Assembly: GCA_049517055.1 (NCBI GenBank)
Contig: JBEKSN010000002.1
Location: 433-64,432, forward strand
Source of the DNA: Candidatus Acidiferrales bacterium
Lineage (GTDB): Bacteria > Acidobacteriota > Terriglobia > Acidiferrales > UBA7541
DNA length: 64,000 nucleotides
Direction: 5' to 3'
Position 1 is the first letter of the stretch; each line of letters starts with the position of its first letter. Of the stretch, positions 11,059-62,126 are shown in pieces. Position numbers and translations under genes: made by a program. A model generated the notes under the pieces. That model was given only the letters and a program-made list of their open reading frames with translations, was not told the DNA's origin and searched no databases.

Positions 11059-11166
11059 GAACTTCCCGCTGAGTCCTTTTGTGCTGGTCTGATCGTCTTG
11101 ACCTGCCATCCAAATATGACTTATAGTCGTATTCGTCTATCAGTCATTGTTAGGAGTTCCTCACAA

Positions 11167-11868: not shown

Positions 11869-11957
11869 CTGCTTCGTTGCCGTCACATTTGACGAGGCTT
11901 GCTGAATCTCGAAGCGCTGGGTTTCATCATACATAGCATAGAACTGGAGGAGATTCC

Positions 11958-14759: not shown

Positions 14760-14772
14760 CTCCGGCGCTCTT

Positions 14773-16341
14773 ATGCCATCGGACGCCTACCAACGGCCGC
14801 CTGTAAACCCCTGGGTCATCGCACTCACGGTAACGCTCGCTACATTCATGGAAGTGCTCGACACCAGTGTCGCAAATGTCGCGCTCCCTCACATTGCAGG
14901 CAGTCTTTCCGCCGGCCAGGACGAAAGCACCTGGATACTCACGTCCTACTTGGTTTCCAATGCGATCGTTCTGCCCATGAGTGGCTGGTTTTCACAAATG
15001 ATCGGCCGCAAGCGTTTTTATATGTCCTGCGTGGCGATTTTCACCATCAGCTCATTTCTGTGCGGACTGGCTCCCAGCCTCGGCATGCTGATCTTTTTTC
15101 GCGTACTCCAGGGAGCAGGCGGCGGAGGCTTGCAGCCCAGTGAACAGGCAATTCTCGCTGACACCTTTTCTCCGGCCAAACGCGGAATGGCATTCGCGGT
15201 CTACGGCATGGCTGTCGTACTTGCTCCGGCTATCGGCCCCACGCTCGGCGGATGGATCACCGACAACTTCGATTGGCGCTGGATTTTCTTCATCAACATC
15301 CCGGTCGGCATTATTTCCCTCCTTCTCACCAACCGGTTAATTTCCGATCCTCCCTACATGAAGGAGCAAAAGCGCACGGGCTTTAAAATCGACTACATCG
15401 GATTGGGATTACTGGCCCTTGGCCTCGGAACCCTGCAGGTCGTGCTCGACAAAGGCCAGCGTGACGATTGGTTCAGCTCGCACTTAATCGTCATTATGAC
15501 CACCATCAGCGCGACTGCCTTGATAGCAGTTGTGATCTGGGAGTGGTTTCACAAAGATCCCATCATCGACCTGCATCTGTTCAAAGATCGCTCTTTTGCC
15601 GTCGGAAATATGTTGATGTTCATGGTGGGATTCGCATTGATGTCCAGCACCGTTTTGCTGCCGCTCTTCATGCAAACTGTTATGGGCTACACCGCGGAAC
15701 AAGCCGGGCTCGCGTTGATGCCCGGAGGATTGGCCATTCTGGTGGCCATGCCCGTCGTGGGCTTTCTTCTTGGGCGATATGATGCGCGGAGACTTCTGCT
15801 CTTCGGAATGGCTATGCTTTCGTTTGCACTGTTCCATATGACTCGATTCGATACCGCTATCGATTTTCGCACTGTGGCTACGGCGCGTGTATTCCAGGCT
15901 ATCGGCCTCGCATTTCTCTTCGTTCCCATCAACACCGCGGCGTACGCATTTATTCCCAAAAACAAATCGAACGCGGCTTCCGGCTTGATCAATCTCGCGC
16001 GGAACATCGGCGGCAGCATAGGAATTTCACTCGTCACCACAATGCTCGCGCGCCGTACACAGTTCCATCAGGCCAACCTGAACAACGACATACACGCGGG
16101 AAGTCCACAACTCCAGGCCATGATTGCTGAGACTACGCGCGCGCTTATAGCCAAAGGATCGTCCGCCTATCAAGCTTCGCACCAGGCCTACGCCATCGTG
16201 GCAAACATGCTCGATCGACAAGCCACCATGCTGGCATACATAGACAACTTCTGGCTCCTCGGCGTATCCGTGCTCGTTATGCTCCCCTTTGTCTTCCTGA
16301 TGAAGAAAGTGAAGCCTGGCGGCCCAATAGCTGTACACTGA
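14773..16341 (+). CDS. emrB: DHA2-family MFS drug efflux transporter (EmrB/QacA type, 14 TM)
   Basis: 522 aa with the motif LDTSVANVALPHI and a 14-TM MFS layout. Forms an operon with the TolC and EmrA genes. Confidence 0.9.
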   Translation: MPSDAYQRPPVNPWVIALTVTLATFMEVLDTSVANVALPHIAGSLSAGQDESTWILTSYLVSNAIVLPMSGWFSQMIGRKRFYMSCVAIFTISSFLCGLAPSLGMLIFFRVLQGAGGGGLQPSEQAILADTFSPAKRGMAFAVYGMAVVLAPAIGPTLGGWITDNFDWRWIFFINIPVGIISLLLTNRLISDPPYMKEQKRTGFKIDYIGLGLLALGLGTLQVVLDKGQRDDWFSSHLIVIMTTISATALIAVVIWEWFHKDPIIDLHLFKDRSFAVGNMLMFMVGFALMSSTVLLPLFMQTVMGYTAEQAGLALMPGGLAILVAMPVVGFLLGRYDARRLLLFGMAMLSFALFHMTRFDTAIDFRTVATARVFQAIGLAFLFVPINTAAYAFIPKNKSNAASGLINLARNIGGSIGISLVTTMLARRTQFHQANLNNDIHAGSPQLQAMIAETTRALIAKGSSAYQASHQAYAIVANMLDRQATMLAYIDNFWLLGVSVLVMLPFVFLMKKVKPGGPIAVH

Positions 16342-31850: not shown

Positions 31851-32876
31851 ATGAGGTTGCGAGCGCTTGTCATCTTCTGCGGCATTTTGGTTTGCCTGTC
31901 GATCGCGCAAGCGCAGGATAAGGCACCGAACGTTGTGAAATATCACGCGACACTGGAGACGGTGAAATATGTTTACGGCGTAGCGCCACCTGTAGCACGA
32001 CTAGCGCCGGGAGATGTTCTCGAGACGAATACGCTTGACGCATTCGGGGACGCCATTCAAAAGCCCGGCGATACGCTCGTGCTGGTGAAAGGCGACAACC
32101 CGCTCACCGGTCCTTTCCATATCGAGGGTGCTGAACCGGGTGACACGATCGCCATCGACTTCATGACGTTGGAAGTGAACGGGGCGCAAGGAGTGGGCGC
32201 GTTTGCGCCGGGCTTTGGCGCGCTTAACTCCACAAACTACACGCCGATGATTCAGGCTCCCCTTCCCGAGCGCATATGGCTCTATCCGATTCATCCTGAT
32301 GACAACACTGCGACTTTTCAGGCGCATGATTCGAATTTCTCGGTGAAGATCCCGCTGCATCCTTTTCTGGGATGCATTGGTGTGGCGCCCTCCGACGGCG
32401 AAGCTCGCAGCTCCGTGGTTCCCGCTGAATTCGGAGGCAACATGGACTCTTCTGAGGCGAGTGTGGGTAACACTCTTTATTTACCCGTGAATGTCCCGGG
32501 CGCGCTGCTCTACATGGGCGACGGGCACGCGGCCATGGGCGATGGTGAAATTGCCGGCACGGCGATTGAGGTACCGTTGCGCGTTCGGCTGCGCGTGCGC
32601 GTAATCAAGGGACAAAAAATTGATTGGCCGCGTTTCGAAAATAAAGATGAAATCATGGCCGTCGGCATCTACCGTCCGCTTGACGATTCATTACGAATCG
32701 CGTTTACCCAGCTTGTCGGCTGGATTCATCGGGATTACGGGTTGTCCGAGCTGGACGCGTACGAATTACTCTCGAAAGTCGCCACGATTCACCTTGCTGA
32801 AATGGTCGATCCGAATTACGTTGTGATCGCGAAAATTGACAAGAAGTACCTGCCCCCGCGCAAAACTTCGCACTAA
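31851..32876 (+). CDS. Acetamidase/formamidase-family protein (secreted)
   Basis: 341 aa with a signal peptide. Family motifs: FGGNMD and GDGHAAMGDGEIAGTAIE. Confidence 0.8.
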   Translation: MRLRALVIFCGILVCLSIAQAQDKAPNVVKYHATLETVKYVYGVAPPVARLAPGDVLETNTLDAFGDAIQKPGDTLVLVKGDNPLTGPFHIEGAEPGDTIAIDFMTLEVNGAQGVGAFAPGFGALNSTNYTPMIQAPLPERIWLYPIHPDDNTATFQAHDSNFSVKIPLHPFLGCIGVAPSDGEARSSVVPAEFGGNMDSSEASVGNTLYLPVNVPGALLYMGDGHAAMGDGEIAGTAIEVPLRVRLRVRVIKGQKIDWPRFENKDEIMAVGIYRPLDDSLRIAFTQLVGWIHRDYGLSELDAYELLSKVATIHLAEMVDPNYVVIAKIDKKYLPPRKTSH

Positions 32877-32935: not shown

Positions 32936-32964
32936 TTGACAGTGAGGCGCTTGGCACCTAGAAT
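32936..32964 (+). promoter_or_regulatory. Sigma-70-type promoter TTGACA-N17-TAGAAT upstream of the sigma-54 activator gene
   Basis: Exact -35 hexamer at 32936..32941, a 17-nt spacer, and a -10 TAGAAT at 32959..32964. Confidence 0.55.
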
Positions 32965-33028
32965 CGGCCCCACGCGCGGGATGCCTTTTGACATGGTTGG
33001 TTTGTGTTAGTCCCCGCCGGAGACCGCC

Positions 33029-34417
33029 ATCACACCCGCTGCGACTAAACCCAAAGTTGCGATTGTTGACGATGACCATAGCCTTCGCTCAAAGATTGCG
33101 TCCGCTCTGCGATCGGAGTTCGAAGTCTTCGAAGGCGAGGATATGGCAGCGGCCTACAGCCTCCTCCAAGGGTCCGCACTTGACGTTTTGCTCCTGGGCC
33201 TCCCGCTCGGTGACGCGGGGGTTCGCGAATGCACCGAGCTGCTTGCCCGGCTGGTCGGAAGCGAAATTGACACCCTCGTAATCGTGCTCAGTTCTGACAA
33301 AACAAAAGCCACCGCTTTGAAAGTGATCGACGCAGGCTCTTACGACTACTTCATCAAGCCCATTGACACGGACGTTCTTCGGCATCTACTCGAGCGAGCC
33401 GTTGAAAAATTACACATTCAGCGCGAAAACCGAATTCTCCGTCAGGAGATAAGCCGCAAGAGCACTCATGGCGATTTAATCGGATCGACCGACGCCATGA
33501 GCCATGTTTTCGATTTCATAAAGCGAATGGCCCGGACGACCACCAATGTCATCATCCGCGGAGAGAGCGGGGTGGGTAAAGAACTTGTCGCAAGGGCCCT
33601 TCACGAACAGAGTCCGCGACGAAACCGTGCATTCGTTAGCGTGAATTGCGCCGCGCTTCCCGAAGGCTTAATGGAAGCTGAGCTATTTGGCTATGAGAAG
33701 GGAGCCTTCACCGGCGCAACGGCCATGAAGGAAGGGCGCGTGGAAATGGCCCACCAAGGAACGCTGTTTCTTGATGAAATTGCGACACTTACGCCCGCTC
33801 TCCAGAGCAAACTCTTGCGTGTGTTGGAGGATCGCTCGTTCACTCGACTAGGCGGCAAAAAGCCCATCCGCGTGGATTTCCGCCTAATTAGTGCGACAAA
33901 CGAAGATCTGGAGGAGATGGTTCGCGAGGAACGGTTTCGCGAAGATCTCTATTACCGAATTCACGTGGTGCCCATTTTCGTGCCCTCTCTACGCGAGAGA
34001 ATGGAAGACATACCGGTGCTTACGGATTACTTCGTCAGCGTTTATTGTGCTGCCAATAGTCTCCCCCCAAAGCGCATTGCGGACGACGCGATGCTGGCCC
34101 TGAAGCGCTACCCGTGGCCTGGGAACGTCCGCGAGCTCCAGAATGCAATTCAAAGGCTGGTTATAATGACGGACGGGGAGGTGATCTCGTTAAAGGACCT
34201 CCCCGGTGAGATTGTGCAAGCTGCCGGCCGGGATTCGCGCAACCGTTTCCGTCTCCCCTCAGGTGGAATAAATCTGGCTAAGGAAATGGAGACTTTCGAG
34301 CGTCGCTGGCTTCAGGAAGCTTTAGAGCAGGCTAAAGACGGGAAAGCCGATGCGGCGCGACTGCTGGGAGTGGACCGGAATCGGTTGAACTACCTATGTC
34401 GTAAGTACAATCTATAA
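33029..34417 (+). CDS. Sigma-54-dependent transcriptional activator (atypical REC - AAA+ - Fis HTH)
   Basis: AAA+ Walker A GESGVGKE, the sigma-54 contact loop GAFTGA, and a C-terminal HTH (AARLLGVDRNRLNYLCRKYNL). The first ATG is at 33143, but the receiver N-terminus (KVAIVDDDHSLR) is encoded in frame upstream with no ATG, GTG or TTG after the in-frame stop at 33008. An ATC at 33029 sits 6 nt after a GGAGA SD. Confidence 0.85.
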   Translation: MTPAATKPKVAIVDDDHSLRSKIASALRSEFEVFEGEDMAAAYSLLQGSALDVLLLGLPLGDAGVRECTELLARLVGSEIDTLVIVLSSDKTKATALKVIDAGSYDYFIKPIDTDVLRHLLERAVEKLHIQRENRILRQEISRKSTHGDLIGSTDAMSHVFDFIKRMARTTTNVIIRGESGVGKELVARALHEQSPRRNRAFVSVNCAALPEGLMEAELFGYEKGAFTGATAMKEGRVEMAHQGTLFLDEIATLTPALQSKLLRVLEDRSFTRLGGKKPIRVDFRLISATNEDLEEMVREERFREDLYYRIHVVPIFVPSLRERMEDIPVLTDYFVSVYCAANSLPPKRIADDAMLALKRYPWPGNVRELQNAIQRLVIMTDGEVISLKDLPGEIVQAAGRDSRNRFRLPSGGINLAKEMETFERRWLQEALEQAKDGKADAARLLGVDRNRLNYLCRKYNL

Positions 34418-34552
34418 GCTTTTGGATGACTTTTTAATCGTCGCGGTGAGAATTTCAACAGAATTTTGCGGTACTTTTGACCCGGAAAGGGCTCGAATAC
34501 TCTAACCTCCTCTCTTTCAGTCCTTTAACTTCCCTGCGTTTCCCTCCGACAT

Positions 34553-34568
34553 TGGAACCAGTTTTGCA
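34553..34568 (+). promoter_or_regulatory. Sigma-54 (-24/-12) promoter TGGAAC-N5-TTGCA for peptide gene A
   Basis: TTGGAACCAGTTTTGCA matches YTGGCACGrNNNTTGCW with exact GG-N10-GC spacing. It lies ~50 nt upstream of the ATG at 34616. Confidence 0.7.
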
Positions 34569-34615
34569 CAGAAGAAGGTGTGACCCAAGCTGTACCTCAA
34601 CGCGGAGGAAGTATC

Positions 34616-34699
34616 ATGGCAAAGAAAATCTTGAAGAAGGCAAAAAAGTTGGAAGAAACGAAGCCCCTCACAAGAGTCGGCTGGGCGAGTAAGACCTAA
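34616..34699 (+). CDS. 27-aa lysine-rich small peptide A (MAKKILKKAKKLEETKPLTRVGWASKT)
   Basis: ATG 7 nt after a GGAGGAA SD, with a sigma-54 promoter upstream and a terminator downstream. Paralogous to 35114..35197. Too short for the ORF track. Confidence 0.65.
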   Translation: MAKKILKKAKKLEETKPLTRVGWASKT

Positions 34700-34766
34700 G
34701 CGTTTTCGCATTACAGGTGCAGCGGCTCGGCTGCGCACCAAGAGATAGCCAATACGGAACTAGCGG

Positions 34767-34800
34767 GCTGCCACCGAAAGGCTGGCAGCTCTTTCTTTTT
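34767..34800 (+). terminator. Intrinsic terminator after peptide gene A
   Basis: GCTGCCA-loop-TGGCAGC stem followed by a T-rich tail (CTCTTTCTTTTT). Confidence 0.6.
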
Positions 34801-35043
34801 ACCAGAAGTAACCTCGCCCGGGATTCGCCCCAGCAGTTCATACCCACGTCTTATTCCGACACTTCTCTTCCAAGGCTCTGCGATGGGGATGAGTACCTAA
34901 GGCATCGCCTGCATATTGAATTATTCAACTCAAACTCAAAAATTAAACACATTTGCTATCGCAGGCCGTTTGCGCGCTGCTCCTTGCCGTCGATAAGTGC
35001 TTTCAAATCAAGTACAGCTCCTCAAGTGGCCCGGTTCACAGTT

Positions 35044-35059
35044 TGGCGCGCGGATTGCA
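35044..35059 (+). promoter_or_regulatory. Sigma-54 (-24/-12) promoter TGGCGC-N5-TTGCA for peptide gene B
   Basis: TTGGCGCGCGGATTGCA has exact consensus spacing. It lies ~55 nt upstream of the ATG at 35114. Confidence 0.7.
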
Positions 35060-35113
35060 CTAGCAGCAGTGTAGGCAGCAGGAAAACAAAAAATTCTAAG
35101 GAGACTCAAGACC

Positions 35114-35197
35114 ATGGCGAAAAAGACAGTGAAAAAGGGAAAGAAGCTCGGATCAGTGAAGCCTCTCAGCTATCACGGGCCAGTTCGCACTAAGTAA
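35114..35197 (+). CDS. 27-aa lysine-rich small peptide B (MAKKTVKKGKKLGSVKPLSYHGPVRTK)
   Basis: ATG after an AAGGAGA SD, with a sigma-54 promoter upstream and a strong terminator downstream. 13 of 27 residues are identical to peptide A, concentrated in MAKKxxKKxKKLxxxKPL. Confidence 0.65.
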   Translation: MAKKTVKKGKKLGSVKPLSYHGPVRTK

Positions 35198-35254
35198 CTT
35201 GGACCTGAAGCAAGCGGGCTTCGTGCCTGCCAAAGTTAGCAGTTGCACTACCAA

Positions 35255-35290
35255 GGGCTGCCGTCCCAGGAACGGCAGCCCTTTTTTATT
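35255..35290 (+). terminator. Intrinsic terminator after peptide gene B
   Basis: Perfect 10-bp stem GGGCTGCCGT / ACGGCAGCCC with a 7-nt loop, followed by TTTTTTATTT. It abuts the stop of the convergent 35331 gene. Confidence 0.8.
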
Positions 35291-35330
35291 TGATGACTGA
35301 GGCTTCTGGCAGCCAGACGGGCCGGGTCTC

Positions 35331-37478
35331 TCACCAAAACTGCGAACGCACCCAGCGCCATGTCGCCAGCCCGCTCTGCCAGGCCAAAGAATGTCTGGGC
35401 CCGGAAATTTTCGCTTTTCCGGTCATGCCTTCCCGCAGGGACCCATCGGGGTTTGGAATTTCCATCTCAACTGCAACGAAGTTTGCCAACTCTTGCCCTA
35501 ATCGCGTGAGCTTCTCTGTCTGCGCGACCGGATGATCCAGCGCCGCGGCCGGAAGTATTTTGTCGATGTGGCCCGTGTAAGTTCTGTACGGAAACGGGAG
35601 CACCTTCACCTTTGCAGAGGCGCCGGGTTGAACGTCCGGAAGTTCCCGGTCCTGTACAAGGATACGCGCCTTCATGGTGCTTCGATTCACCAGCCGCGCA
35701 AACTCGTCCCCCGCCGAAAGGTATTCGCCAGCCTTCTGTTCCACATTTGAAGTAGTGACGACCCCGTCCATGGGAGCTCGAATTTCGAGGTTCTGCAGTC
35801 TTTTCTGCGCTACGGAAAGCTCTTGCTCAAGCCGGCCGCGATTGCGAACCACTTGCGCCGCTTGACTGAAGTCTGAGCGATCCTGATTATTGCGGAGGTT
35901 GCTGCTGGCGAGCCCTAATTGTTGGGTAAGCGATTGCGCGTCGGCACTTATTTCGGGATTCTCCAAAATGGCCAATATTTGCCCCGCTTTTACTACATCG
36001 CTCTCGCGGACAAACACTCTTTGAATTCTGCCGTCAACGGCAGCCCGAACGCGCACATCCTTTCCGGGCTCGAGCACCAAATCGGTAGAGACCTTCGAAG
36101 AAAACGGGGGCAACAGAAATAGCAGAACCAGTCCAAGAGCGCCAACTTGCTGCGCCCGGGTCATTTTCCAGGCCATATATTTCTCCTTCTTGTCCCGCAT
36201 CCAAGCCCGTACGACGGGCAAAGCTTTTCGCAAACCCTTTCTTGCAAAGAAATAGATGACGCCCAGGGTTGCCAGATAGCCCCATTCGTCCCCCAGTTGG
36301 CTCACGAGCACATTCTTAGCAAACACAAGCATGAGAATCAGGAGCGACGAGCTGTAAATCACAGCTGAAATTCCGAACAGGAAGAAAACACGGCGCTGGC
36401 GCTTGCTGGACGGCGGCAAGTCTATGTCATGCCGAAAAATGTACTTCTGCACCCAGGCTCGCAAGTAGCCGAAAGACTCTTCACGCAGGTTATCAATTTT
36501 GAGGAATTGCGAGAGCGCATAGTAGCCGTCGGCTTTGATTAGCGGGTTCAAGTTCACGAGCGCGCCCTGAATGCCGCTCAGCAGCATCATTTTGTAGAAG
36601 AAGTCATTCGTCAGCGAGCCCGGTGCCGTGAAATGCCAGACCAATGCAGCCACTCCGCAGATCACCAGTTCAATCCAAATGCCCGCGAAGATGACCCACT
36701 GACGCGGAGTCCCTGTCTTGAACAGAAGAATGTCCGTGGTGTCAGTAAAAAATGCGGGAGTGAAATAGATGAGCAAAAAACCCATCTGATGAACCTCGCC
36801 GCCAAAATGTTTACAAGTAAGCCCGTGACCGAATTCGTGTATGGCACCCAGACCCAAGAGGAGGAACCAAAAGACCCAGATGTCGTAGGCGCTTTTACCT
36901 GCAAAACTATATAAGGCCTCCGTGTCCTGCTGCACGCGGGTCCAATCGCCGGCGAGCAGATAAACCGCCACAATAAATAGGAACAAAGAAAAGATGACAA
37001 AGCCCTTGGTAAACATCCATCCGAGATAGCGATCCAACTTAGCGAGCGTCTTGTCCGGATCCCAAGCTTTAAAGCTGATGTAGAGGACACTCGATTGCTC
37101 GACCCGACCTTTGCGCTCGTCGCGAATGCGCTCAAGTACAGCCAGGTTTTTTTCCCCGACCGAGCGTTCCCACATAGTGGCTTCCACCGAGTCGAGGAAG
37201 TCGAGCACGTCGGCCTCGCTGGTGGTCAAATCGGGATCCTTTTCAGACATGGCCTGTGCGATCTCGGCAGCCGTACGAGTTCCGTCGCAAAGTGACAGCA
37301 GTTGATATTCCGTGGCCCCGTATCGGTTGTAGGAGTTCGTCTCGCGGTTTTTGACCACGTAACTGATTTCGCCCGCTACCGTTTGTTCGCTGATGCGCAG
37401 ATCGGTACGGAGTTTGGGTCGTTTAAGACCTTTCGCCAGGACGCTGGAAACTTGAAGGCTGGTAGGACCGAAACGCAT
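35331..37478 (-). CDS. PqqD-like (RRE) domain / M50 site-2-protease-like metalloprotease / HlyD membrane-fusion domain fusion protein
   Basis: 715 aa. N-terminal PqqD-like segment (YQLLSLCDGTRTAAEIAQAMSEK...EADVLDFLDSV). HExxH in AIHEFGHGLTCKHFGG and a second S2P motif NLNPLIKADGYYALS within TM helices. C-terminal HlyD barrel-sandwich and coiled coil (VDGRIQRVFVRESDVVKAGQILAIL, LEIRAPMDGVVT). Confidence 0.8.
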   Translation of the reverse strand: MRFGPTSLQVSSVLAKGLKRPKLRTDLRISEQTVAGEISYVVKNRETNSYNRYGATEYQLLSLCDGTRTAAEIAQAMSEKDPDLTTSEADVLDFLDSVEATMWERSVGEKNLAVLERIRDERKGRVEQSSVLYISFKAWDPDKTLAKLDRYLGWMFTKGFVIFSLFLFIVAVYLLAGDWTRVQQDTEALYSFAGKSAYDIWVFWFLLLGLGAIHEFGHGLTCKHFGGEVHQMGFLLIYFTPAFFTDTTDILLFKTGTPRQWVIFAGIWIELVICGVAALVWHFTAPGSLTNDFFYKMMLLSGIQGALVNLNPLIKADGYYALSQFLKIDNLREESFGYLRAWVQKYIFRHDIDLPPSSKRQRRVFFLFGISAVIYSSSLLILMLVFAKNVLVSQLGDEWGYLATLGVIYFFARKGLRKALPVVRAWMRDKKEKYMAWKMTRAQQVGALGLVLLFLLPPFSSKVSTDLVLEPGKDVRVRAAVDGRIQRVFVRESDVVKAGQILAILENPEISADAQSLTQQLGLASSNLRNNQDRSDFSQAAQVVRNRGRLEQELSVAQKRLQNLEIRAPMDGVVTTSNVEQKAGEYLSAGDEFARLVNRSTMKARILVQDRELPDVQPGASAKVKVLPFPYRTYTGHIDKILPAAALDHPVAQTEKLTRLGQELANFVAVEMEIPNPDGSLREGMTGKAKISGPRHSLAWQSGLATWRWVRSQFW

Positions 37479-37490
37479 GGTCGGGTTCCT

Positions 37491-38414
37491 CTACGGCTTT
37501 GATGGCGAGGTTCCAGGCCATCCGACGCGTACCGCCATTCCGGGACGCAGATCGGAAATTCCCGAACCAGTGAGCTGCGCCACCACATTGTAACTATCGC
37601 TGGACGGATCCACGGTAGGACTTACTTTCACCACCTTCGCGCTGACCTGGCGATCGGCACCTCCCACGAGCGTAAGGCTAACCGGCGCGCCGAGTGCGGG
37701 GCGCGGGCTGGCCAATTCGGAAATTTGAAACTGGACCTGCAGAGGATAGAGTTGACTCACTCGAAAACACTTGTCACCCTTGACGATGGCTTGTCCTTCT
37801 CGAACGTAGCGGCGCGCCACGACGCCCGAGAACGGAGCGCGCAAAACGGTCTGGTCGATTTCAATTTCGAGACGGTGGATCTCGGCTTGGCCGCTTTCGA
37901 CCAAGGCCTCATATCCGTGCATGTCGTACTCAGCGCCTTTTGCTTCGAATTCCGCGGCTTCGAGATCAGCCTGACTTGACAGTCCCGCTTCCCGCAACTG
38001 CTGCTGACGCCGGTAGGCTGCGCCCTTAGCCTTCAGTTCCGCTGCTTTGTATTGCAGGTTGTTCTGAGTCACCTTCAGATCGTCGCGCGCCTTGATGAGC
38101 TCCTGTTGCAGGCTTCGGTCGTCAAGGTGGCCAAGAATTTCGCCTGCCTTGACTACGCTGCCTTCGTCTTTGACGACGGACGTCACCGTGCCATCGCGTT
38201 GCGAGGAGAGATCTACCTGATGTTCCACTGTGAGCACGCTTAGAATATCGGGGGTCTCGGTCCCTTTTGCGGAAACTGCGCTTGGCGCGGGAGTCTGAGA
38301 CGAAGCTGCGTTGGATGGCGGCGCATTCTTGGGGCTGGAAGCAACCGACGAATTGTCGCAACCATTTCCGACAATTGCCATTGTAGCGACTAAGATCAAC
38401 GCGGCGCGTTTCAT
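37491..38414 (-). CDS. HlyD/RND-adaptor-family periplasmic lipoprotein
   Basis: 307 aa. Signal peptide ending in Cys (LVATMAIVGNGC), a Ser/Pro linker, and barrel-sandwich/coiled-coil motifs (DGTVTSVVKDEGSVVKAGEILGHLD, LRAPFSGVVA). Only 12 nt from the downstream gene. Confidence 0.8.
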   Translation of the reverse strand: MKRAALILVATMAIVGNGCDNSSVASSPKNAPPSNAASSQTPAPSAVSAKGTETPDILSVLTVEHQVDLSSQRDGTVTSVVKDEGSVVKAGEILGHLDDRSLQQELIKARDDLKVTQNNLQYKAAELKAKGAAYRRQQQLREAGLSSQADLEAAEFEAKGAEYDMHGYEALVESGQAEIHRLEIEIDQTVLRAPFSGVVARRYVREGQAIVKGDKCFRVSQLYPLQVQFQISELASPRPALGAPVSLTLVGGADRQVSAKVVKVSPTVDPSSDSYNVVAQLTGSGISDLRPGMAVRVGWPGTSPSKP

Positions 38415-38433
38415 ATTGAAGGTTCCTCGTTTT

Positions 38434-40860
38434 TCACGGCAGCCAGGGCCATATCTTTTGCCAGATCCATCTGAACGGCGAACGCAGAATCACGTACCCA
38501 ACCGGGTACCATCCACTGTCAAACCACCCGCCCCACGACCGAATTCTCACTCGCCCAACCATTCCATCGCGGGCCTTTCCTCCGGCGTTCTCGAATATCG
38601 CGCGCACCAGGAAGTACTGGTCTCCCGAGTCAGTCCGAGTCTGTGCCCCGATGCGATCTACAGTGCCCTCGAACGTAGTTGTCGGGAACGCATTTAACTT
38701 CAGTGACACATTTTCCCCTGGCCGTACGAGCGAAAGATCGGTTTCAGGGACGCTCATTTCCGCAGCCATGCGGTCCTGAGATACTACTTCGCAGAAACTA
38801 TCTCCGGATTTGATCATGGACCCGGATTTTTCTTCCACCTTCGGAGTGGTCACGATGCCGGCGATGGGTGAGGTCAAGCGCGCGTCATTTATTCGTTGCT
38901 GCTCAAGTGCCACTTCAGCGGAATATAGCTGCGAGCGTATCTGAGCCTGTCCTGCCGCTGCGGGGTCATTCCGGAATTCGGCTTCGGCTAATTCACGCCG
39001 CACCTGAGACAACGCGGTGTCGGCTTCTATTAGCTTTATGCGATCCTCGCTGTCGTCGAGTTGCGCAAGCAGCTGGCCTGGCTTCACCAAATCGCCTTCG
39101 CGCACGAAGACTTGTTTTACGACTCCGCCCTCAATTGCGCTCACCATGCGGCGCTCGGATGGGACCACCGTGGCGTCGGTGCCAACGCGCATGGGCCATG
39201 GGATTATCGTCAGAAAAAGGGCCACGATGCCGGCGCGTTGCGCGTATTCCATCATGCGGCTCTGCGGCATAGCCGCCAGGAACTTTTTCTTTCTCTGCGC
39301 AAACGGCTGGAAAATATTCGCCAGCGGAACTTGCTGGTAAAGCTGGGCGTTGCGGATAGCAACCGTAGTCTGGCTGGCAAGGATGGCCAGGGTTTCCAAA
39401 TGGCTTTCTGAGAGAAAATCGGCTTCCTTGCTCAGAAGAATCATTGCGCCGAGCGTCCCTTGATCGTCGCGCAGTGGCAAGCCGTAAAAGCCTTGGTGTT
39501 CATGGGCTTCTAGGAACGAGACAATTTGGGCGTGGGCCTCTGCAGGCTCCACTTGCCAGCCATCCTCATGAAAATTCGCCGAAACGTGACTATCCTGTTC
39601 CGCCACCCACTCCATGCGTTCGCGCAGCTCGCTCATTTCCCGCGTCTTCGGAACTTCCGTTTCTCCGGAGACGGCCCCCAGGACGAAGCGCCCACGGTCG
39701 TAAAATCCAATAACGCAACTCTCAAACGGCACGACAGATGCCGACTGCGCCACTACCGTGGTCAAAACGTGATCGAGATCCAGAGTGGAAGTAATTTCCT
39801 GCGAAATTTTCAACAGGGCATCGAGGGCGTGAACCTTTCGCTCGGACTCCAGCAGGTTTGCATTGTGCAGTGCCACCGCGGCCTGTTCGCTGATACTCGA
39901 GAGGAAAAATAGGTCGTCTTCATTGAACAGCGTACCGTCCGCCTTATTAATGATCTCGACGACACCGAGAACCTCGTCGTCTTTTCGCAGGGGCGCCGCC
40001 ATCCAAGACTGAAGCTCGAAATCTCCGCCAGCTTCAATGCGTTCGGCTAGCCCGGCTTCCCCGCTCGGGTCTTCGACTAACTTCGGGTTTGCTTGCTGCG
40101 CAACTTCAGCCAGCAAACCTTCACTTAATGACGCGGTGGCGTCCTCTTCAACCGTAGGGTCATCGCCGATTTGCCTCGCAAGACTGAGTTCCTGTCCGCC
40201 AGGCGAAGCGAGCCAGAGATTGCAGGCTCCGGCCCCCAAAATGTCGCGGATTTTACCCGCTACGATGGGGAGAAGCTCTTCCAGTTCCAGAGTTGACGTA
40301 AATGTCTGGCCCAGGTCGTATAGCGCGGTCAGGCGTTCGAGAGTGGCGAGTTGGCTCTGACGTTCCTGCTCAATCGCGCCCAGATTGGTCAGTGCGCGGC
40401 CTGCCAGCTGGCATGCTTCTTCCAGGAAGTGCGCGTCTTCGGCGGTGAAGTCCCCGGCGCGCTTATTGAGAACCTCGACTACGCCTTCCGGCCTTTGCGC
40501 TCCCGGCAGGGATGAATACAAAGCGGATTTCACGCGCGTACGGCTGAACTCATCAAGATGCTCAAGATCTTCTGGTGCGATTTCGCGTGCGGGCAAACGC
40601 CTGGTGGCGGCTGATTGGTACAATATTGCGAGCGTTCCCCCGTTGACAGGCAATTCGGTGGGATGCAAGCGTTCGCCCGGCTCAGTCCAGCGCATGCGGC
40701 AAAGGAGTTCCTCTGCTGTTCCGTTCGTCGTCCATACGAGCACGGCGCGCGCTCCGAGCGTAGTGCCCACTCGGGCGGCGAAGGTCTTCAGCAGGGTGTC
40801 TTGATCGCGGCACGCTAAAGATATGCTCGCGAGCTCAAAAAGCGCGGAAGATGTTTCCAT
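38434..40860 (-). CDS. Triple-GAF sensor fused to a TM-anchored HlyD membrane-fusion domain
   Basis: Three GAF-like modules, each ending in ...AVALHNANLLESER-type helices. One TM helix (AGIVALFLTIIPWP) is followed by HlyD motifs (IEGGVVKQVFVREGDLVKPGQLLAQLD, LTSPIAGIVT). The ATG at 40860 follows a GGGAGAG SD. The ORF-track start at 40941 would overlap the candidate promoter. Confidence 0.75.
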   Translation of the reverse strand: METSSALFELASISLACRDQDTLLKTFAARVGTTLGARAVLVWTTNGTAEELLCRMRWTEPGERLHPTELPVNGGTLAILYQSAATRRLPAREIAPEDLEHLDEFSRTRVKSALYSSLPGAQRPEGVVEVLNKRAGDFTAEDAHFLEEACQLAGRALTNLGAIEQERQSQLATLERLTALYDLGQTFTSTLELEELLPIVAGKIRDILGAGACNLWLASPGGQELSLARQIGDDPTVEEDATASLSEGLLAEVAQQANPKLVEDPSGEAGLAERIEAGGDFELQSWMAAPLRKDDEVLGVVEIINKADGTLFNEDDLFFLSSISEQAAVALHNANLLESERKVHALDALLKISQEITSTLDLDHVLTTVVAQSASVVPFESCVIGFYDRGRFVLGAVSGETEVPKTREMSELRERMEWVAEQDSHVSANFHEDGWQVEPAEAHAQIVSFLEAHEHQGFYGLPLRDDQGTLGAMILLSKEADFLSESHLETLAILASQTTVAIRNAQLYQQVPLANIFQPFAQRKKKFLAAMPQSRMMEYAQRAGIVALFLTIIPWPMRVGTDATVVPSERRMVSAIEGGVVKQVFVREGDLVKPGQLLAQLDDSEDRIKLIEADTALSQVRRELAEAEFRNDPAAAGQAQIRSQLYSAEVALEQQRINDARLTSPIAGIVTTPKVEEKSGSMIKSGDSFCEVVSQDRMAAEMSVPETDLSLVRPGENVSLKLNAFPTTTFEGTVDRIGAQTRTDSGDQYFLVRAIFENAGGKARDGMVGRVRIRSWGGWFDSGWYPVGYVILRSPFRWIWQKIWPWLP

Positions 40861-40931
40861 TACTCTCCCAGCGGCAGGGGATACTCTTAGTCGCGGGTAA
40901 AAACCGCGCGCGAATGAAGAGATAGTGAGGC

Positions 40932-40947
40932 AGCCTAGCAAATGCCA
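40932..40947 (-). promoter_or_regulatory. Candidate sigma-54-type promoter (TGGCAT-N5-AGGCT) for the GAF-HlyD/HlyD/M50 operon
   Basis: The minus strand reads TGGCATTTGCTAGGCT with correct GG-N10-GC spacing. The -24 element is strong and the -12 element is degenerate. It lies ~75 nt upstream of the ATG at 40860. Confidence 0.35.
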
Positions 40948-41063
40948 TGTATAGCGTCAAGGAAGACCGCTGTCGCCATCTGCCGTATTTCTTAGAAGTT
41001 TTTTGCAGGGACTTGATTGCCGGACATAATTCAGATAGCTTTGCAAAGCGCAGTGAGGCACAT

Positions 41064-41399
41064 GTGAACATTGGCATCCGCAAGGCTGGCCGAGCCACAA
41101 TCCTGGATCTCGACGGGCCGCTGAAATTGGGCGACGCTGAAGAATCTTTTCGCAATCAGATTCAGCAGCTCATCGAAGCGGGGACCACACACGTAGCTGT
41201 GAATCTCGCCGGCGTTACGGAACTCGACAGCTCGGGGATTGGGGCACTCGTTCGTGCGTTCACCACGCTGAAGCGCGCGGGCGGAAAATGCACCTACTTC
41301 GCGCCGAATAAGCGGGTAGTGATGCTGTTGAAAATGGTCCGGCTCGACACAATTCTTGACCTCGCCGAAGACGAAGCTACAGCTCTTACGCGCATCTAG
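41064..41399 (+). CDS. STAS-domain protein (anti-sigma-factor antagonist family)
   Basis: SpoIIAA-like sequence (ILDLDGPLKLGDAEE...VAVNLAGVTELDSSGIGALV). The GTG at 41064 follows a GAGG SD. ORF-track start 40947 is an alternative. Confidence 0.7.
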   Translation: MNIGIRKAGRATILDLDGPLKLGDAEESFRNQIQQLIEAGTTHVAVNLAGVTELDSSGIGALVRAFTTLKRAGGKCTYFAPNKRVVMLLKMVRLDTILDLAEDEATALTRI

Positions 41400-41477: not shown

Positions 41478-42143
41478 TTAACGGCGATCGAGCGCTGGAT
41501 GCCGTACGTCGCGGCCGGCGACGAAGTAAATCACGTCTTCGGCGATGTTTGTCGCGTGGTCTCCGATGCGTTCGATGTTTTTCGCCACCAGAACAAGCTC
41601 GAAGGCGGTGAACACCACGGCGGAGTTTTCCATCATGTAGGTAAGCAACTCGCGGAAGAGTTGGTCGCGCAGCCGGTCCACCTGGTCATCGCGCTGGAGC
41701 ACGCTATGGGCTAGCTCGATATCTCCTCGCACCAGGGCATTCAAGCTATCGCGGACCATCCCTTCGGCCAGCTCGCTCATTCGCGGCAAATCAACGTAAG
41801 GCTTCACCTGTGGATGGCGCATGATCCGCGTTGCCGATTGCGCGATATTGACAGCTTGGTCTCCGATGCGCTCAAGGTCTCCGTTGATGCGCGAAACCGC
41901 CAGCAAGAATCGCAAGTCGGCGGCCATAGGCTGTTGCAGTGCCAGCAAACGTTGCACGCGCTCGTCGATTTCAATCTGAATCTCGTTAATTGCATCTTCT
42001 TCAGTCAAAACGGTCTCGGCGAGGTGCTCTTCACCATCCAGCACCGCGTGGATCGCCTGATGGACGGCTCGCTCGGCGAGGCTTCCCATCCAAAGCAGTC
42101 GCTGTTTCAGTTCTTCGAGGTCTCGCTCAAAATGTCGTTCCAT
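41478..42143 (-). CDS. phoU: Phosphate signalling complex protein PhoU
   Basis: 221 aa with duplicated PhoU repeats (NGDLERIGDQAVNIA, AKNIERIGDHATNIAEDVIY). Lies downstream of pstB. Confidence 0.9.
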   Translation of the reverse strand: MERHFERDLEELKQRLLWMGSLAERAVHQAIHAVLDGEEHLAETVLTEEDAINEIQIEIDERVQRLLALQQPMAADLRFLLAVSRINGDLERIGDQAVNIAQSATRIMRHPQVKPYVDLPRMSELAEGMVRDSLNALVRGDIELAHSVLQRDDQVDRLRDQLFRELLTYMMENSAVVFTAFELVLVAKNIERIGDHATNIAEDVIYFVAGRDVRHPALDRR

Positions 42144-42197
42144 GTTTCCTCAGACCTTTCCGTTTCTGCGTGCAATAGCCCGATGAACCAATCCACT

Positions 42198-43037
42198 TTA
42201 GCCAAAGCGGCCGGTAATGTAGGCCTCAGTACGCGGATCGGTAGGCGTCGTAAATAGTTTAGATGTTTCGCTGTGTTCGATGAGTTTGCCGTCAAGCATG
42301 AAGGCTGTGAAATCGCTGGCGCGGGCCGCCTGCTGCATGTTGTGAGTAACGATTGCCATGGTGCAGCTATCCTTCAGCTGAAACAATAATTCTTCAATCT
42401 TTGCGGTCGTCACCGGATCCAGCGCGGAGCAGGGCTCGTCCAGCAAAAGCACTTCAGGGTTCACGGCGAGCGCGCGCGCAATACACAGCCTCTGCTGCTG
42501 CCCGCCGGAAAGCGCGAACGCCGACTTGTGAAGGTAATCCTTGACCTCGTCCCAAAGCGCCGCGCGGTGCAGGCTGCTTTCTACGAGTTCGTCGAGACGC
42601 CCCTTATAACCATTGATGCGAAGTCCATACGCCACGTTTTCATAAATCGACTTCGGAAAGGGATTCGGCCTCTGAAACACCATTCCGACACGACGCCGCA
42701 GATTCACCACATCCATCGAATGTATATCTTGGCCGTCGAGCAAGATCTCGCCATCCACGCGAGTGTTTCTGATGATCTCGTTCATGCGGTTCAACGTGCG
42801 CAGGAATGTCGACTTTCCGCATCCCGAAGGTCCGATTAAGGCGGTCACCTTGTTCACCGGGATCTTCAGGTTCAGCCCAAAGATGGCCTGCTTTGGGCCG
42901 TAGAAAAAATTCAGGTCGGAGATCTGAAAGCGCACCGGCGTCTCCTTTTCCGAAGCCATCGAGCGAGGATCATTCATACGCACTTGCGGAGCGAGTCTTG
43001 CGGCGGTGGCATTGCTGCCTTGGGAAATCGACGGCAT
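42198..43037 (-). CDS. pstB: Phosphate ABC transporter ATP-binding protein
   Basis: Walker [10 protein letters not shown], signature [15 protein letters not shown], Walker B LLLDEP. Confidence 0.95.
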
Positions 43038-43038
43038 A

Positions 43039-43893
43039 TCACGCGCTCCTGACCGCGCTGCCGCGGTTCAGTAGAAGACGGGCACCCAGATTTGCAACCA
43101 GCACCAATCCCAATAATACCAAGCCCGCGGCCCACGCCTGCCTATGCCAATCATCATACGGCGCGATGGCATATGTATATATCATGACCGGAAGTGACGC
43201 GGTCGGCTGTTCGAAGCCAGGGCTCCAAAACCGGTTCCCGAAGGCGGTAAAGAGCAGCGGCGCAGTTTCCCCGGCAACCCGCGCGAGCGCCAGCAGCATT
43301 CCCGTTAGTATGCCGCCGCTTGCTGCGGGCAGCACGACGGTAACGATAGTCTTCCACTTACTGGCTCCCAGCGCCATTGCGCCTTCGCGCAGGCTTCCGG
43401 GCACCGCCCTAAGAAACTCCTCCGTGCTTCGTACCGTGATCGGGATCACCATCATCCCTAGCGCCACGCCGCCGGCGAGCGCGGAGAAATGTTTCACCGG
43501 CAGCACCACCAGCGAGTACGCGAAAATACCTATAACGATGGACGGCACGCCGTTCAGCAAATCCGTCGTGTACCGTACGACGAACGAAAATGTTTTGCCC
43601 CCGAACTCCGCAAGATACACGCCGGTAAGCAATCCTACCGGGAGGCCCATCAAAGCTGCCAACATCAGCAGCTTCAGGCTGCCAACAATGGCGTTGGCCA
43701 TTCCACCGCCCGATTCACCCACGGGCTTCGGGAGCTGCGTAAAAAAATTCCAATTCAGCGATTTGCCGCCGTTCCAGATCAAATAGCCAAGGATAAAAAA
43801 CAAAATCGAAACCACTCCAAGCGCGGCTATTCCGGTCAAGCTCAGCATTACGTAATTCAATGACTTTCGCCAGACAATACGTGGATTACTCAT
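43039..43893 (-). CDS. pstA: Phosphate ABC transporter permease PstA
   Basis: The start [10 protein letters not shown] forms an ATGA overlap with the pstC stop. Carries the EAA-loop [13 protein letters not shown]. The longer ORF to 44217 lies inside pstC. Confidence 0.9.
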
Positions 43894-44888
43894 GCGGGCC
43901 GACCTCCTCCGCGTCCGGTGGCGACAATCAAAATCCGAGCCAAGCCATTCAGAATAAACGTGATCAGGAATAGCACCAGCCCCAACTCGATCAGCGAACT
44001 CAAATACAAGTCTCCGGTCGCTTCCGTGAATTGGCTGGCGATGGTGGAAGCGATGGTATCGCCGGGCGAAAGCAGCGAGGCGGCGATCGTTGGCGCATTG
44101 CCTATCACCATGGTAACGGCCATCGTTTCGCCCAGCGCGCGTGCCAAGGCGAGGAATACAGAACCCATGATGCCGGTGCGAGCCCATGGGACCACTACCT
44201 TCCAAGTGGATTCCCATCGCGTTGCGCCCATCGCAAGCGCCGCTTCGCGCTGCTCGCGCGGCACCGTCAACAGAACTTCCCGCGAAACAGAAATGATGAA
44301 CGGCACGACCATAATCGCCAGAACGATCCCAGCGGTCAGAAAGCCGACTCCGTAATTGGGTCCATGGAACAACGCCCCGATGTAGGGAACATTACCGAGT
44401 GTGTGAATCAGGGCCGGACCTATCGTCGTGCGCATCACTGGCACAACTATAAAAATTCCCAGCAGGCCATAGATCACGCTGGGGACAGCCGCCAGCAAAT
44501 CAATCAAAAACGAGATGACGTCACTGACCTTGCGCGGCGCGAGCTCGGAGAGAAAAATCGCGCTCGCAAGCCCAAGCGGAACCGCGAGGCAGAGCGCCAC
44601 TGCTGAAGTGACTAACGTTCCATATATGAACGGCGCCGCACCAAAGTTGTCAAAGTTCGGATCCCACACCCTAGTCCAGAAAAACATCCATCCGAATTTT
44701 GCCCGGGAAAGATGTGAATTCGCCCAGAGCTCGTACACCAGCATCGACGTGATGAGGAGTATAAAGGCTGAAAATGTAAGGGTAACGAGGTGAGCGATTT
44801 CGTCGCCGCTGCGCAGCCGGCGAAGAAACGCGCGAGGGCCCGCTTGCGGCGGAACCTCGTGCGCGATTGTGGTAGCGGCCGCGGACAT
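43890..44888 (-). CDS. pstC: Phosphate ABC transporter permease PstC
   Basis: 332 aa with six TM helices and the EAA-loop QREAALAMGATRWE. Confidence 0.9.
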   Translation of the reverse strand: MSAAATTIAHEVPPQAGPRAFLRRLRSGDEIAHLVTLTFSAFILLITSMLVYELWANSHLSRAKFGWMFFWTRVWDPNFDNFGAAPFIYGTLVTSAVALCLAVPLGLASAIFLSELAPRKVSDVISFLIDLLAAVPSVIYGLLGIFIVVPVMRTTIGPALIHTLGNVPYIGALFHGPNYGVGFLTAGIVLAIMVVPFIISVSREVLLTVPREQREAALAMGATRWESTWKVVVPWARTGIMGSVFLALARALGETMAVTMVIGNAPTIAASLLSPGDTIASTIASQFTEATGDLYLSSLIELGLVLFLITFILNGLARILIVATGRGGGRPA

Positions 44889-60901: not shown

Positions 60902-61267
60902 ATGGACATCTCTACGCGCCAAGCCGGAGTTGCTACGATTGTTGATGTGGTTGGCGACATTACGCTCTATAACTCGCCGGAGGTTCGCAAGGTGTTGCTG
61001 AATCTCTTGAAAGATAAGAAATCTCCTCGCGTTATCGTGAACATGCTCAGCGTAAAATATATTGATAGTGCTGGCGTCGCCTCCTTGGTTGAAGGTTTGA
61101 AGGTTTCGCGCGATTTGAAGAGCACCTTTGCTCTGTTCGGGCTCAGTCGGACCGCGCAGGAAGTGTTCGAGCTTACTCGGCTTGTAAGAGTTTTTGAAAT
61201 TTACACCAATGAAGAGGATGCCTTACGGGGCGGCAGCGCCAACACAAATGTTGCTCCCATCAGGTAA
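60902..61267 (+). CDS. STAS-domain protein (MlaB-like / anti-sigma antagonist family)
   Basis: 121 aa with the SpoIIAA-like motif MLSVKYIDSAGVASLVE. Lies directly upstream of mlaE/mlaF. Confidence 0.7.
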   Translation: MDISTRQAGVATIVDVVGDITLYNSPEVRKVLLNLLKDKKSPRVIVNMLSVKYIDSAGVASLVEGLKVSRDLKSTFALFGLSRTAQEVFELTRLVRVFEIYTNEEDALRGGSANTNVAPIR

Positions 61268-61321
61268 ATTCCGGGCGGTCTGCGCGATTTCCCGGGGATT
61301 TTAGCCCGTCCGGATTCAAAG

Positions 61322-62119: not shown

Positions 62120-62126
62120 AGAGAAC

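Follow-up and report, generated by a model that had tools for sequence, protein, structure and literature searches.

Organization of the locus

The locus described here, which encodes a putative peptide-processing and export module, lies in a 64,000-nucleotide stretch of contig JBEKSN010000002.1 from an uncultured soil acidobacterium, a Candidatus Acidiferrales bacterium (assembly GCA_049517055.1; the whole stretch is referred to as the window) and is made up of two converging sets of genes. On the + strand, the gene of a sigma-54 activator (Sigma54_activat; ATG open reading frame (ORF) 33143–34417, probable full gene 33029..34417, in a frame open from 33011) is followed by genes for two 27-residue peptides, peptide A (MAKKILKKAKKLEETKPLTRVGWASKT, 34616–34699) and peptide B (MAKKTVKKGKKLGSVKPLSYHGPVRTK, 35114–35197), both identified from the ORF list and the raw sequence. 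They face a minus-strand operon encoding, from its distal end, a 715-residue RRE–M50–HlyD fusion protease (M50-HlyD, 35331–37478), a small HlyD-family adaptor of 307 residues that is probably a lipoprotein (37491–38414), and GAF-HlyD, 808 residues long from its probable ATG at 40860 (38434..40860; the longest ORF extends to 40941). The operon is compact, with intergenic gaps of 12 nt (37479–37490) and 19 nt (38415–38433). Divergent from GAF-HlyD, on the + strand, is a gene for a STAS-domain protein of the anti-sigma-antagonist type, with 111 residues counted from a GTG at 41064 (41064–41399). The protease is 100% identical to a database protein of a Candidatus Acidiferrales metagenome-assembled genome.

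Domains were assigned by Pfam and NCBIfam scans of the window proteins. HlyD_D23/HlyD_3 domains were found in all three minus-strand proteins, and no ABC, RND, MFS or OEP gene is present inside the three-gene operon. A preliminary description of this DNA had listed these genes in this order, with the same gaps and without a pump or an outer-membrane factor (OMF), all of which the ORF list, sequence and scans confirm; it had also assigned the window's sole TolC and MFS genes to a separate TetR-controlled operon, and these indeed belong to a complete TetR-TolC-EmrA-MFS operon at 11098–16341 (TolC, 11958–13460). The limits given there, 32936–40947, need revision: the first is the position of a sigma-70-like promoter before the activator (TTGACA-17-TAGAAT, 32936..32964, + strand, 11 of 12 positions, by consensus match alone) and not a coding start, and the second falls just short of the conserved STAS gene, which had been missed together with the RRE domain of the protease.

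Conservation of the gene set

To compare neighbourhoods, 80 genome loci were fetched by means of an alignment of 50 protease family members, and neighbouring genes were classified by window-derived seeds, all-against-all clustering and Pfam. The loci fall into an acidobacterial-type group (48 loci; Acidobacteriota, Binatia and Eisenbacteria) and a group from other phyla (33 loci; Planctomycetota, Verrucomicrobiota, Gemmatimonadota, Oligoflexia, Nitrospira and Bacteroidales). GAF-HlyD accompanies the protease in 45/48 and 31/33 loci of the two groups, respectively, and the small HlyD adaptor in 44/48 and 19/33. The activator is present in 43/48 acidobacterial-type loci and 1/33 of the others, precursor genes in 39/48 and 0/33, and the STAS gene in 36/48 and 0/33; the five acidobacterial-type loci lacking the activator are short or truncated contigs. 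OMF genes (0/48 and 9/33) and SecA-like ATPases (0/48 and 3/33) have the opposite distribution.

Repetition of the gene order in 43/48 acidobacterial-type loci places the arrangement far beyond chance. Synteny is held from 88% down to approximately 30% protease identity, across several acidobacterial orders as well as Binatia and Eisenbacteria, and in one locus (L057) the activator, two precursor genes and the STAS gene have relocated jointly, 5 kb from the operon. The proposal that peptides, activator and the M50/three-adaptor operon form one conserved unit is borne out by these counts, and the loss of synteny that had been named as grounds for abandoning it was looked for and not seen, peptide genes and activator staying syntenic in the acidobacterial-type loci. 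STAS, kept in three-quarters of those loci, can be counted as part of the acidobacterial module.

Nine of the 33 other-phyla loci have an OMF gene within or adjacent to the operon; in L048, L058 and L066 this gene directly follows that of the protease. A phmmer search with the SecA-like protein of L081 as the query identified SecA_DEAD ATPases in L071, L079 and L081 only; neither the 64 kb of the window nor the acidobacterial loci gave a match. In these three loci, from a Pirellulaceae, a Planctomycetota and a Nitrospira genome, the three-gene set stands together with a truncated SecA-like ATPase (L071, 2987–22958; L081, 3606–17327; L079, 12247–14241). L071 and L081 also carry an OMF gene, and L071, L074 and L081 encode a giant protein of one cluster, of which the L081 member contains cadherin, Big_9 and RTX domains. 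L071, L079 and L081 represent the variant described by Kamneva et al. in 2015 (see below), here beside a possible large cargo.

Peptide genes A and B

Each peptide gene has its own promoter, ribosome-binding site and terminator, all on the + strand. Peptide A is preceded by a sigma-54-type −24/−12 element (TGGAAC-N5-TTGCA, 34553..34568), its spacing to the ATG matching that in the orthologues, and by a Shine–Dalgarno sequence, GGAGGA, 6 nt before the ATG; it is followed by a terminator hairpin with a U-run (34765..34800; −20.8 kcal/mol, z −3.2) that is conserved in the closest relative of the locus, L013. The corresponding elements of peptide B are a −24/−12 motif match (TGGCGC-N5-TTGCA, 35044..35059), a Shine–Dalgarno sequence, AGGAG (the range of spacings being 6–10 nt), and a strong hairpin with a T-run (35253..35290; −23.8 kcal/mol, z −5.1) located between peptide B and the converging M50-HlyD gene. 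Over leader codons 1–18 of six orthologous genes, variable columns number 6/5/15 at codon positions 1/2/3, and pairwise differences 46/25/115. With signals of their own and substitutions dominated by the third codon position, the two 27-residue ORFs are real translated genes under codon-level purifying selection.

Both peptides are very basic and have no signal sequence, and neither they nor seven relatives gave a meaningful NCBIfam or Pfam match. Peptide A consists of a conserved Lys-rich leader (MAKKILKKAKKLEETKPL) and the variable tail TRVGWASKT, and peptide B of the leader MAKKTVKKGKKLGSVKPL and the variable tail SYHGPVRTK, whose C-terminal residue is Lys. In a comparison of the window with L013, identity is 26–29/30 positions for promoter and leader and 28/30 for the terminator, with the intervening tail falling to 14/30. 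The tail is a local divergence hot spot, as would be predicted for a leader/core peptide whose core bears the specificity.

Precursor families in sister lineages

In the clade of the window, the proteases of which are 43–88% identical, each locus contains one to five peptide genes with the leader MAKKxLKKxKK[LI]xxxKPL and a variable tail. More distant Acidobacteriota contain one or two precursors of approximately 45–125 residues, with the leader M[ST]IQKKSLI..L...KKA and basic tails that are often perfect tandem repeats, such as (LAKGT)12, (ATKNL)13, (KQVGLS)8, (KPGNAL)9, (GRA)12, (KVA)10 and (KAAPKLM)3, among others. Leader type switches along with protease clade. A third type of leader (MANEVKIKLTDAQKEKIREATGKDMPEIRV...), again followed by basic tandem repeats, was observed in Thermoanaerobaculia (L015, 8285–8665; L036, 13099–13437; L042, ~12978–13391).

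The repeats are preserved in the peptide and not in the DNA. In L018, 12 identical LAKGT units are encoded by 12 distinct DNA versions, with variable columns of 1/0/5 by codon position and 72% matches between repeat units (TRF). Distinct versions were likewise counted as 12/12, 13/13 and 11/11 in tandem-repeat precursors including those at L018 12199–12504, L024 12178–12510 and L027 12193–12537. At the sequence level, this divergence looks like selection for the peptide repeat and against identity of the DNA repeat.

A database search with the leader profile returned 1068 related clusters. Among the best 120 of these, none has a name more informative than 'hypothetical protein', and 119 are without a Pfam domain; strict tandem repeats are present in 31 of these 120, and their tails contain 22% Lys+Arg and 5% Asp+Glu.

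In five sister loci (L001, 14066–14521 and 13616–13915; L002, 13683–14144; L003, 7536–7991; L004, 13457–13963; L011, 12902–13396), a gene for a SET-domain protein, of the protein lysine methyltransferase type, separates the Lys-rich peptide genes from the activator; it is absent from the window. Its position hints that the peptides could be lysine-methylated in some strains.

Regulation of the peptide genes

The activator combines a sigma-54 interaction domain (PF00158, 1.7e-70), in which the GAFTGA motif is readable, with an AAA lid and a Fis-type helix–turn–helix (HTH_8). The conserved N terminus of its receiver domain (KPKVAIVDDD) is encoded in the same frame ahead of the first ATG, in a segment (33011–33143) that contains no in-frame ATG, GTG or TTG; the TTG start used by its relatives is replaced by ACT/Ser codons in the window and in L013. 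Translation probably begins at a rare ATC at 33029, which has GGAG before it, and a start annotated at 33143 would cut the receiver short. The phospho-acceptor Asp of the receiver is replaced by Gly (DVLLLGLPL), and by Gly or Ala across the window's clade, and the activators of the distant clade keep this Asp and have lost the conserved Lys. No histidine kinase gene was found in the neighbourhood of the activator.

A perfect palindrome of the form TTGAA-N3-TTCAA (TTGAATTATTCAA, 34916..34928, + strand), situated 128 nt ahead of the peptide B −24 element, is the putative activator-binding site. It is the single perfect copy in the window, is conserved in L013 and recurs 192–201 nt before the ATG in 13/28 closely related peptide genes. 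A degenerate copy (GTGAGAATTTCAA, 34446..34458, + strand) is the putative activator site for peptide A; it lies in a block conserved in the alignment of six orthologous upstream regions, its two mismatches making it not significant on its own. As palindromes with two mismatches occur at chance level across the window, weight is given only to the perfect copy and to the phylogenetic footprint.

The −24/−12 element precedes 45/56 related precursor genes, 61–96 nt from the ATG, and no such element was found before the HlyD operon in 37/46 loci, from which it follows that sigma-54 governs the peptide genes and not the machinery. The 'sigma-54-controlled module' of the preliminary description holds for the former and not for the HlyD operon. 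A weak sigma-54-like sequence upstream of GAF-HlyD (TGGCATTTGCTAGGCT) is not conserved and was rejected as a promoter. The operon may be transcribed from a weak sigma-70-type element (TTGACG-17-TAGGCT, 40932..40960, − strand), a match below the scan threshold.

In L018, a gene for an RsbW-like kinase (HATPase_c_2, 1.3e-30; 14781–15221) stands beside the STAS gene, next to the activator, with equivalents in L019, L021, L024, L051 and L057. This pairing suggests a partner-switching input to an activator whose receiver looks non-phosphorylatable.

The RRE–M50–HlyD protease

The fusion protein is composed of a cytoplasmic PqqD-like RRE domain (residues ~28–97), a site-2-protease membrane core with its last transmembrane segment at ~445–463, and a periplasmic MacA/MexA-like adaptor. 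The zinc-site motifs are H214-E215-x-x-H218 and N309-P312-D317-G318-Y319, of which H214, E215, H218, P312, D317, G318 and Y319 are invariant in the alignment of 50 diverse members. The best NCBIfam match is daptide_HExxH (NF041824; 2.9e-53), which covers profile positions 12–366 of 379 and scores 181 bits against a curated cut-off of 300. An AlphaFold model computed on the family alignment (pLDDT 85.5) has three strands followed by three helices at residues 28–97, then a helical membrane core and an adaptor with an α-hairpin at 508–562. Foldseek with this full-length model returned adaptor structures alone and was uninformative on the M50 core.

At the N terminus, weak Pfam PqqD and TIGR03859 matches cover residues 58–103, and a search with a profile of this domain gave TbiB1 (8e-4), PqqD (0.014) and TfuB1 (0.057). 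With the N-terminal domain modelled separately (pLDDT 80.8), the top Foldseek matches were PqqD, TbiB1 with leader, TglHI, TfuB1 with leader, and CteB, all of them RRE structures, with target-normalized TM-scores of 0.57–0.67 for the free-standing RRE proteins. As modelled, the N terminus of the protease is an RRE-type fold, PqqD-like. Such a domain on the protease gives direct support to the processing role that had been proposed for the locus; the export role proposed with it is still an inference. Full-length RRE/M50/HlyD fusions form a family of 2811 clusters at 50% identity (E ≤ 1e-30).

M50-HlyD and GAF-HlyD both end in a Trp-rich amphipathic helix (…LATWRWVRSQFW and …FRWIWQKIWPWLP, respectively), that of the protease being modelled at residues 698–714. 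These helices may serve as membrane-surface anchors in place of the membrane-proximal domain of classical adaptors.

Adaptors, outer-membrane factor and pumps

The fused adaptor part of M50-HlyD matches MacA, AcrA, MexA and ZneB in structure (Foldseek). GAF-HlyD has three GAF domains in the cytoplasm, a single hydrophobic segment and its HlyD adaptor in the periplasm; its orthologues are 800–812 residues long. The small adaptor has a signal peptide and a widely conserved Cys, Cys19, consistent with a lipoprotein. The TolC-docking RLS motif at the tip of the adaptor hairpin has the form R-x3-L-x6-S/T (PMC3391258), and the small adaptor bears such a motif (RQQQLREAGLSS), found at the same position in 33/50 orthologues; matches in GAF-HlyD (12/62) and in M50-HlyD (25/85, at other positions) are at about chance level. 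Confinement of the motif to the small lipoprotein suggests a mixed adaptor assembly in which the lipoprotein touches the OMF. TriABC–OpmH of Pseudomonas aeruginosa, an RND pump that needs two different adaptors, has a mixed adaptor ring, only one type of subunit in which touches the OMF. By analogy, and as a lead only, this precedent would fit an RLS motif limited to the small adaptor.

No ABC, RND or MFS pump is a recurrent neighbour of the operon in the 81 loci, and a pump gene is near it in just 3/48 acidobacterial-type loci. L008 and L043 contain separate ABC/FtsX operons 5–7 kb away, the L043 set having its own adaptor. An 825-residue duplicated MacB_PCD/FtsX permease, with no ATPase gene, was observed between STAS and GAF-HlyD in L001 (3489–5966) and L002 (3307–5784) and is absent from the window.

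The preliminary description had left two options, a pump and TolC encoded elsewhere, or the M50 membrane domain itself as the inner-membrane partner, and had asked whether an ABC or TolC gene ever joins the set. OMF genes do so in nine loci of other phyla and in no acidobacterial-type locus, and ABC, RND or MFS genes never do so recurrently. On this comparative evidence, the M50 domain as inner-membrane partner, working with a recruited OMF, is the favoured option.

Relation to known systems

A set of GAF-HlyD, Peptidase_M50-HlyD and HlyD/biotin_lipoyl proteins with a secondary SecA_DEAD protein was described by Kamneva, Poudel and Ward in 2015 (PLoS One; PMC4452313), who pointed out that an ABC transporter is missing, put forward SecA_DEAD as the ATPase and the M50 protein as the pore in the inner membrane, allowed for partners encoded elsewhere in the genome, and suggested a role in secretion while stating that the biological role was completely unknown. 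The locus in the window agrees with that set in the three proteins and their domains, in having no ABC transporter and in OEP genes being adjacent in some loci only, and the family alignment of its protease recovers loci of the published type (L071, L079 and L081). It differs, as do the 48 acidobacterial-type loci, in having no SecA_DEAD ATPase. Acidobacteria were not sampled in the 2015 study, and no cargo, RRE, sigma-54 activator or STAS partner was identified there; a literature search found no later paper on the module and no description of the acidobacterial SecA-less variant, of an RRE on the protease in this context, of the sigma-54/palindrome circuit, of the STAS link or of the precursor family. 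As the three-gene set and the M50-pore idea were already published, with SecA_DEAD, the 'new architecture' claimed for an M50 inner-membrane partner was overstated; novelty lies in the candidate cargo, the RRE domain, the circuit of regulation and a variant without SecA. The preliminary description is largely supported in outline, having gone wrong on the target of sigma-54, the omitted STAS gene and the novelty of the architecture.

The closest protease family is that of MpaP, which removes the leader of daptides and consists of an N-terminal RRE followed by an intramembrane site-2 protease (bioRxiv 10.1101/2023.03.08.531785; NF041824). Both systems have an N-terminal RRE, an HExxH membrane protease and several short precursor genes adjacent. 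Unlike daptide loci, however, the locus has no oxidative decarboxylase, aminotransferase or methyltransferase genes, its precursors have neither the ELExMEAP leader motif nor the invariant C-terminal Thr, and MpaP, known from Actinomycetota and Bacillota, has no fused adaptor. EpeP/YydH, the M50 protease of the Bacillus subtilis epipeptide, is thought to both cleave and export its peptide (PMC10885120), and so sets a precedent in which the membrane M50 protease maturing a small ribosomal peptide is also its exit route. The window protein matches its family (NF058609) weakly, at 44.9 bits against a cut-off of 225; the locus contains neither a radical-SAM epimerase nor an ABC immunity transporter, and the host of EpeP is a monoderm, in which an adaptor and OMF are not needed. 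Membership in the daptide and epipeptide families was rejected, with scores under the cut-offs and no modifying enzymes.

With type I secretion and tripartite efflux systems (HlyBD–TolC, MacAB–TolC and AcrAB–TolC) the module shares lipoyl, α-hairpin and β-barrel adaptors and the RLS tip motif, whereas it has no ABC, RND or MFS energizer and no OMF gene, and has three different adaptors in place of one. ABC bacteriocin exporters with a C39 peptidase resemble it in coupling leader cleavage and export in one membrane protein, but the peptidase in the window is a zinc intramembrane protease and not a cytoplasmic cysteine peptidase, and there is no double-glycine leader.

Proposed mechanism and alternative explanations

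What computation shows is a conserved gene set, translated peptides, promoters with an upstream site, an RRE fold, intact protease motifs, folds of the adaptor type, an RLS motif and no pump; from these features we infer leader binding, a cleavage site, an export route and its energy source, recruitment of an OMF and a role for the peptides. On sequence evidence, we consider it somewhat better than an even chance (approximately 0.55) that the locus is an acidobacterial SecA-less variant of the GAF-HlyD/M50-HlyD/HlyD module, coupled to a probable cargo and regulator, that trims and exports peptides. The sigma-54 activator, perhaps under control of STAS, would bind TTGAA-N3-TTCAA and fire two independent sigma-54 promoters, each giving rise to one 27-residue peptide with a Lys-rich leader (MAKKxLKKxKKLxxxKPL) and a hypervariable tail of ~9 residues. 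The cytoplasmic RRE of the protease would capture the leader, and the intramembrane zinc site would cleave the peptide, probably near the invariant KPL. The tail could then pass the protease core, either through it or beside it, and enter a periplasmic tube formed by the three different adaptors, of which the small lipoprotein, with its RLS motif, would dock on an OMF encoded elsewhere, the TolC at 11958–13460 being a candidate. The GAF domains would gate the machine upon binding a cytoplasmic ligand. For the exported tails, strain-specific signals or cationic antimicrobials are the obvious candidate roles.

Several points weigh against such a trimming and export module. The whole family is known from sequence alone, and no energy source is evident at the loci, although the export of cationic peptides against an inside-negative potential would need one. 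Site-2 proteases are not known as translocators of hydrophilic peptides, and the peptides here are not hydrophobic, unlike typical substrates of intramembrane proteases. The structural matches of the RRE are of modest E-value (5e-3 to 5e-2), although the list is consistent, and none of the 48 acidobacterial-type loci supplies an OMF gene. In other phyla, the three-gene set adjoins SecA-like ATPases and giant RTX/cadherin proteins, so the general cargo of the family may not be small peptides; a search for leader-type or tandem-repeat small ORFs near the set in the 33 other-phyla loci (Planctomycetota, Verrucomicrobiota, Gemmatimonadota, Nitrospira and Bacteroidales) found none.

The processing and export steps could also be divided between different machines, an unlikely arrangement but the rival with the most in its favour. 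The RRE–M50 protein would then only strip the leader, and an unlinked energized pump with TolC would translocate the product, with the three adaptors coupling to that pump, which could be of the ABC/MacB type, one of the many duplicated FtsX permeases of Acidobacteria or a distant SecA_DEAD homologue. All characterized HlyD-family adaptors partner an ABC, RND or MFS transporter (PMC8277102), and candidate partners exist in the permease beside the operon in L001 and L002, the ABC/FtsX sets of L008 and L043, and the SecA_DEAD proteins inside the cluster in three other-phyla loci, along with the provision of Kamneva et al. for partners elsewhere in the genome. However, pump genes near the acidobacterial-type operons are as rare as noted above, the L001/L002 permease has no ATPase partner and the L008 and L043 sets are separate operons; moreover, the adaptor is covalently fused to the M50 core in more than 2800 clusters at 50% identity, and retention of this fusion argues that the core itself is the inner-membrane base of the assembly. 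Less probable again is a signalling device that exports nothing, in which the adaptors would sense the periplasm or outer membrane and the GAF domains a cytoplasmic ligand, and the M50 core would destroy or activate intracellular peptides that feed back on the activator or STAS. Signalling is the classic role of site-2 proteases, GAF and STAS domains are regulatory, an RsbW-like kinase occurs with STAS in six loci, and no energy source for export is visible; the activator, with no normal phospho-acceptor and no histidine kinase nearby, needs another input. Yet hypervariable and tandem-repeat tails under strong protein-level selection resemble secreted, specificity-bearing products, and an outward conduit is indicated by OMF genes inside operons of other phyla as well as by the preserved TolC-docking motif.

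Two further explanations would separate the peptides from the machinery. The small ORFs could encode sigma-54-dependent basic proteins with an intracellular role, for example in binding nucleic acid or ribosomes under stress, and merely neighbour the operon; their basic character, their lack of a signal sequence and their separate transcription units with promoters of a different type agree with this, but it is very improbable given synteny kept down to ~30% protease identity, a leader type that tracks the protease clade and a protease bearing a domain known for binding peptide leaders. That the sigma-54 transcripts are non-coding small RNAs with incidental 27-codon ORFs we consider hardly credible: the transcription units are short (~200 nt) and have their own terminators, and 27 residues is under the length limit of most gene callers, but Shine–Dalgarno sequences are suitably spaced, most substitutions fall at third codon positions and the repeats are conserved despite synonymous divergence of their DNA. 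The transcripts may have a dual function.

Within the trimming and export module, a bolder version is put forward only tentatively, as a possibility we doubt more than we favour. It would be a pump-less, protease-gated system spanning the envelope, with the RRE-bearing site-2 protease as the translocator, three adaptors leading to an outer-membrane channel, and sigma-54-induced, leader-guided cationic peptides as cargo. The pro-peptides of sister lineages, with up to 13 tandem units, would be diced into copies of 3–13 residues, and the strain-specific tails would act as kin-recognition or quorum signals. If true, the diced tandem pro-peptide would be a bacterial counterpart of eukaryotic polyprotein pheromone precursors. 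An M50 core that is itself the inner-membrane component would amount to a type-I-like secretion route with no ABC, RND or MFS energizer. The module has had no known cargo or function since 2015; these loci now provide it with a candidate cargo, a domain for recognition and a switch for regulation, and at least one cultured carrier exists, Granulicella sp. S190 (locus L014). The 1068 clusters of the unannotated precursor family, highly unusual in joining a conserved leader to basic and often perfectly repetitive tails, suggest that Acidobacteriota, a dominant and poorly understood soil phylum, make a class of secreted peptides not yet explored.

Flanking genes

The module is flanked on one side by an acetamidase/formamidase-family gene (31851–32876) and on the other by STAS and then phoU/pst. 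The phoU-pstBAC phosphate-transport genes (41478–44888) directly flank STAS in the window and in L001, L002 and L013, an adjacency that may be just inherited gene order. A second STAS-like ORF (60902–61267) adjoins an ABC ATPase gene (62127–62975), both recognized by weak seed matches; the pair (60902–62975) may belong to an Mla-like lipid-transport set that is unrelated to the module.

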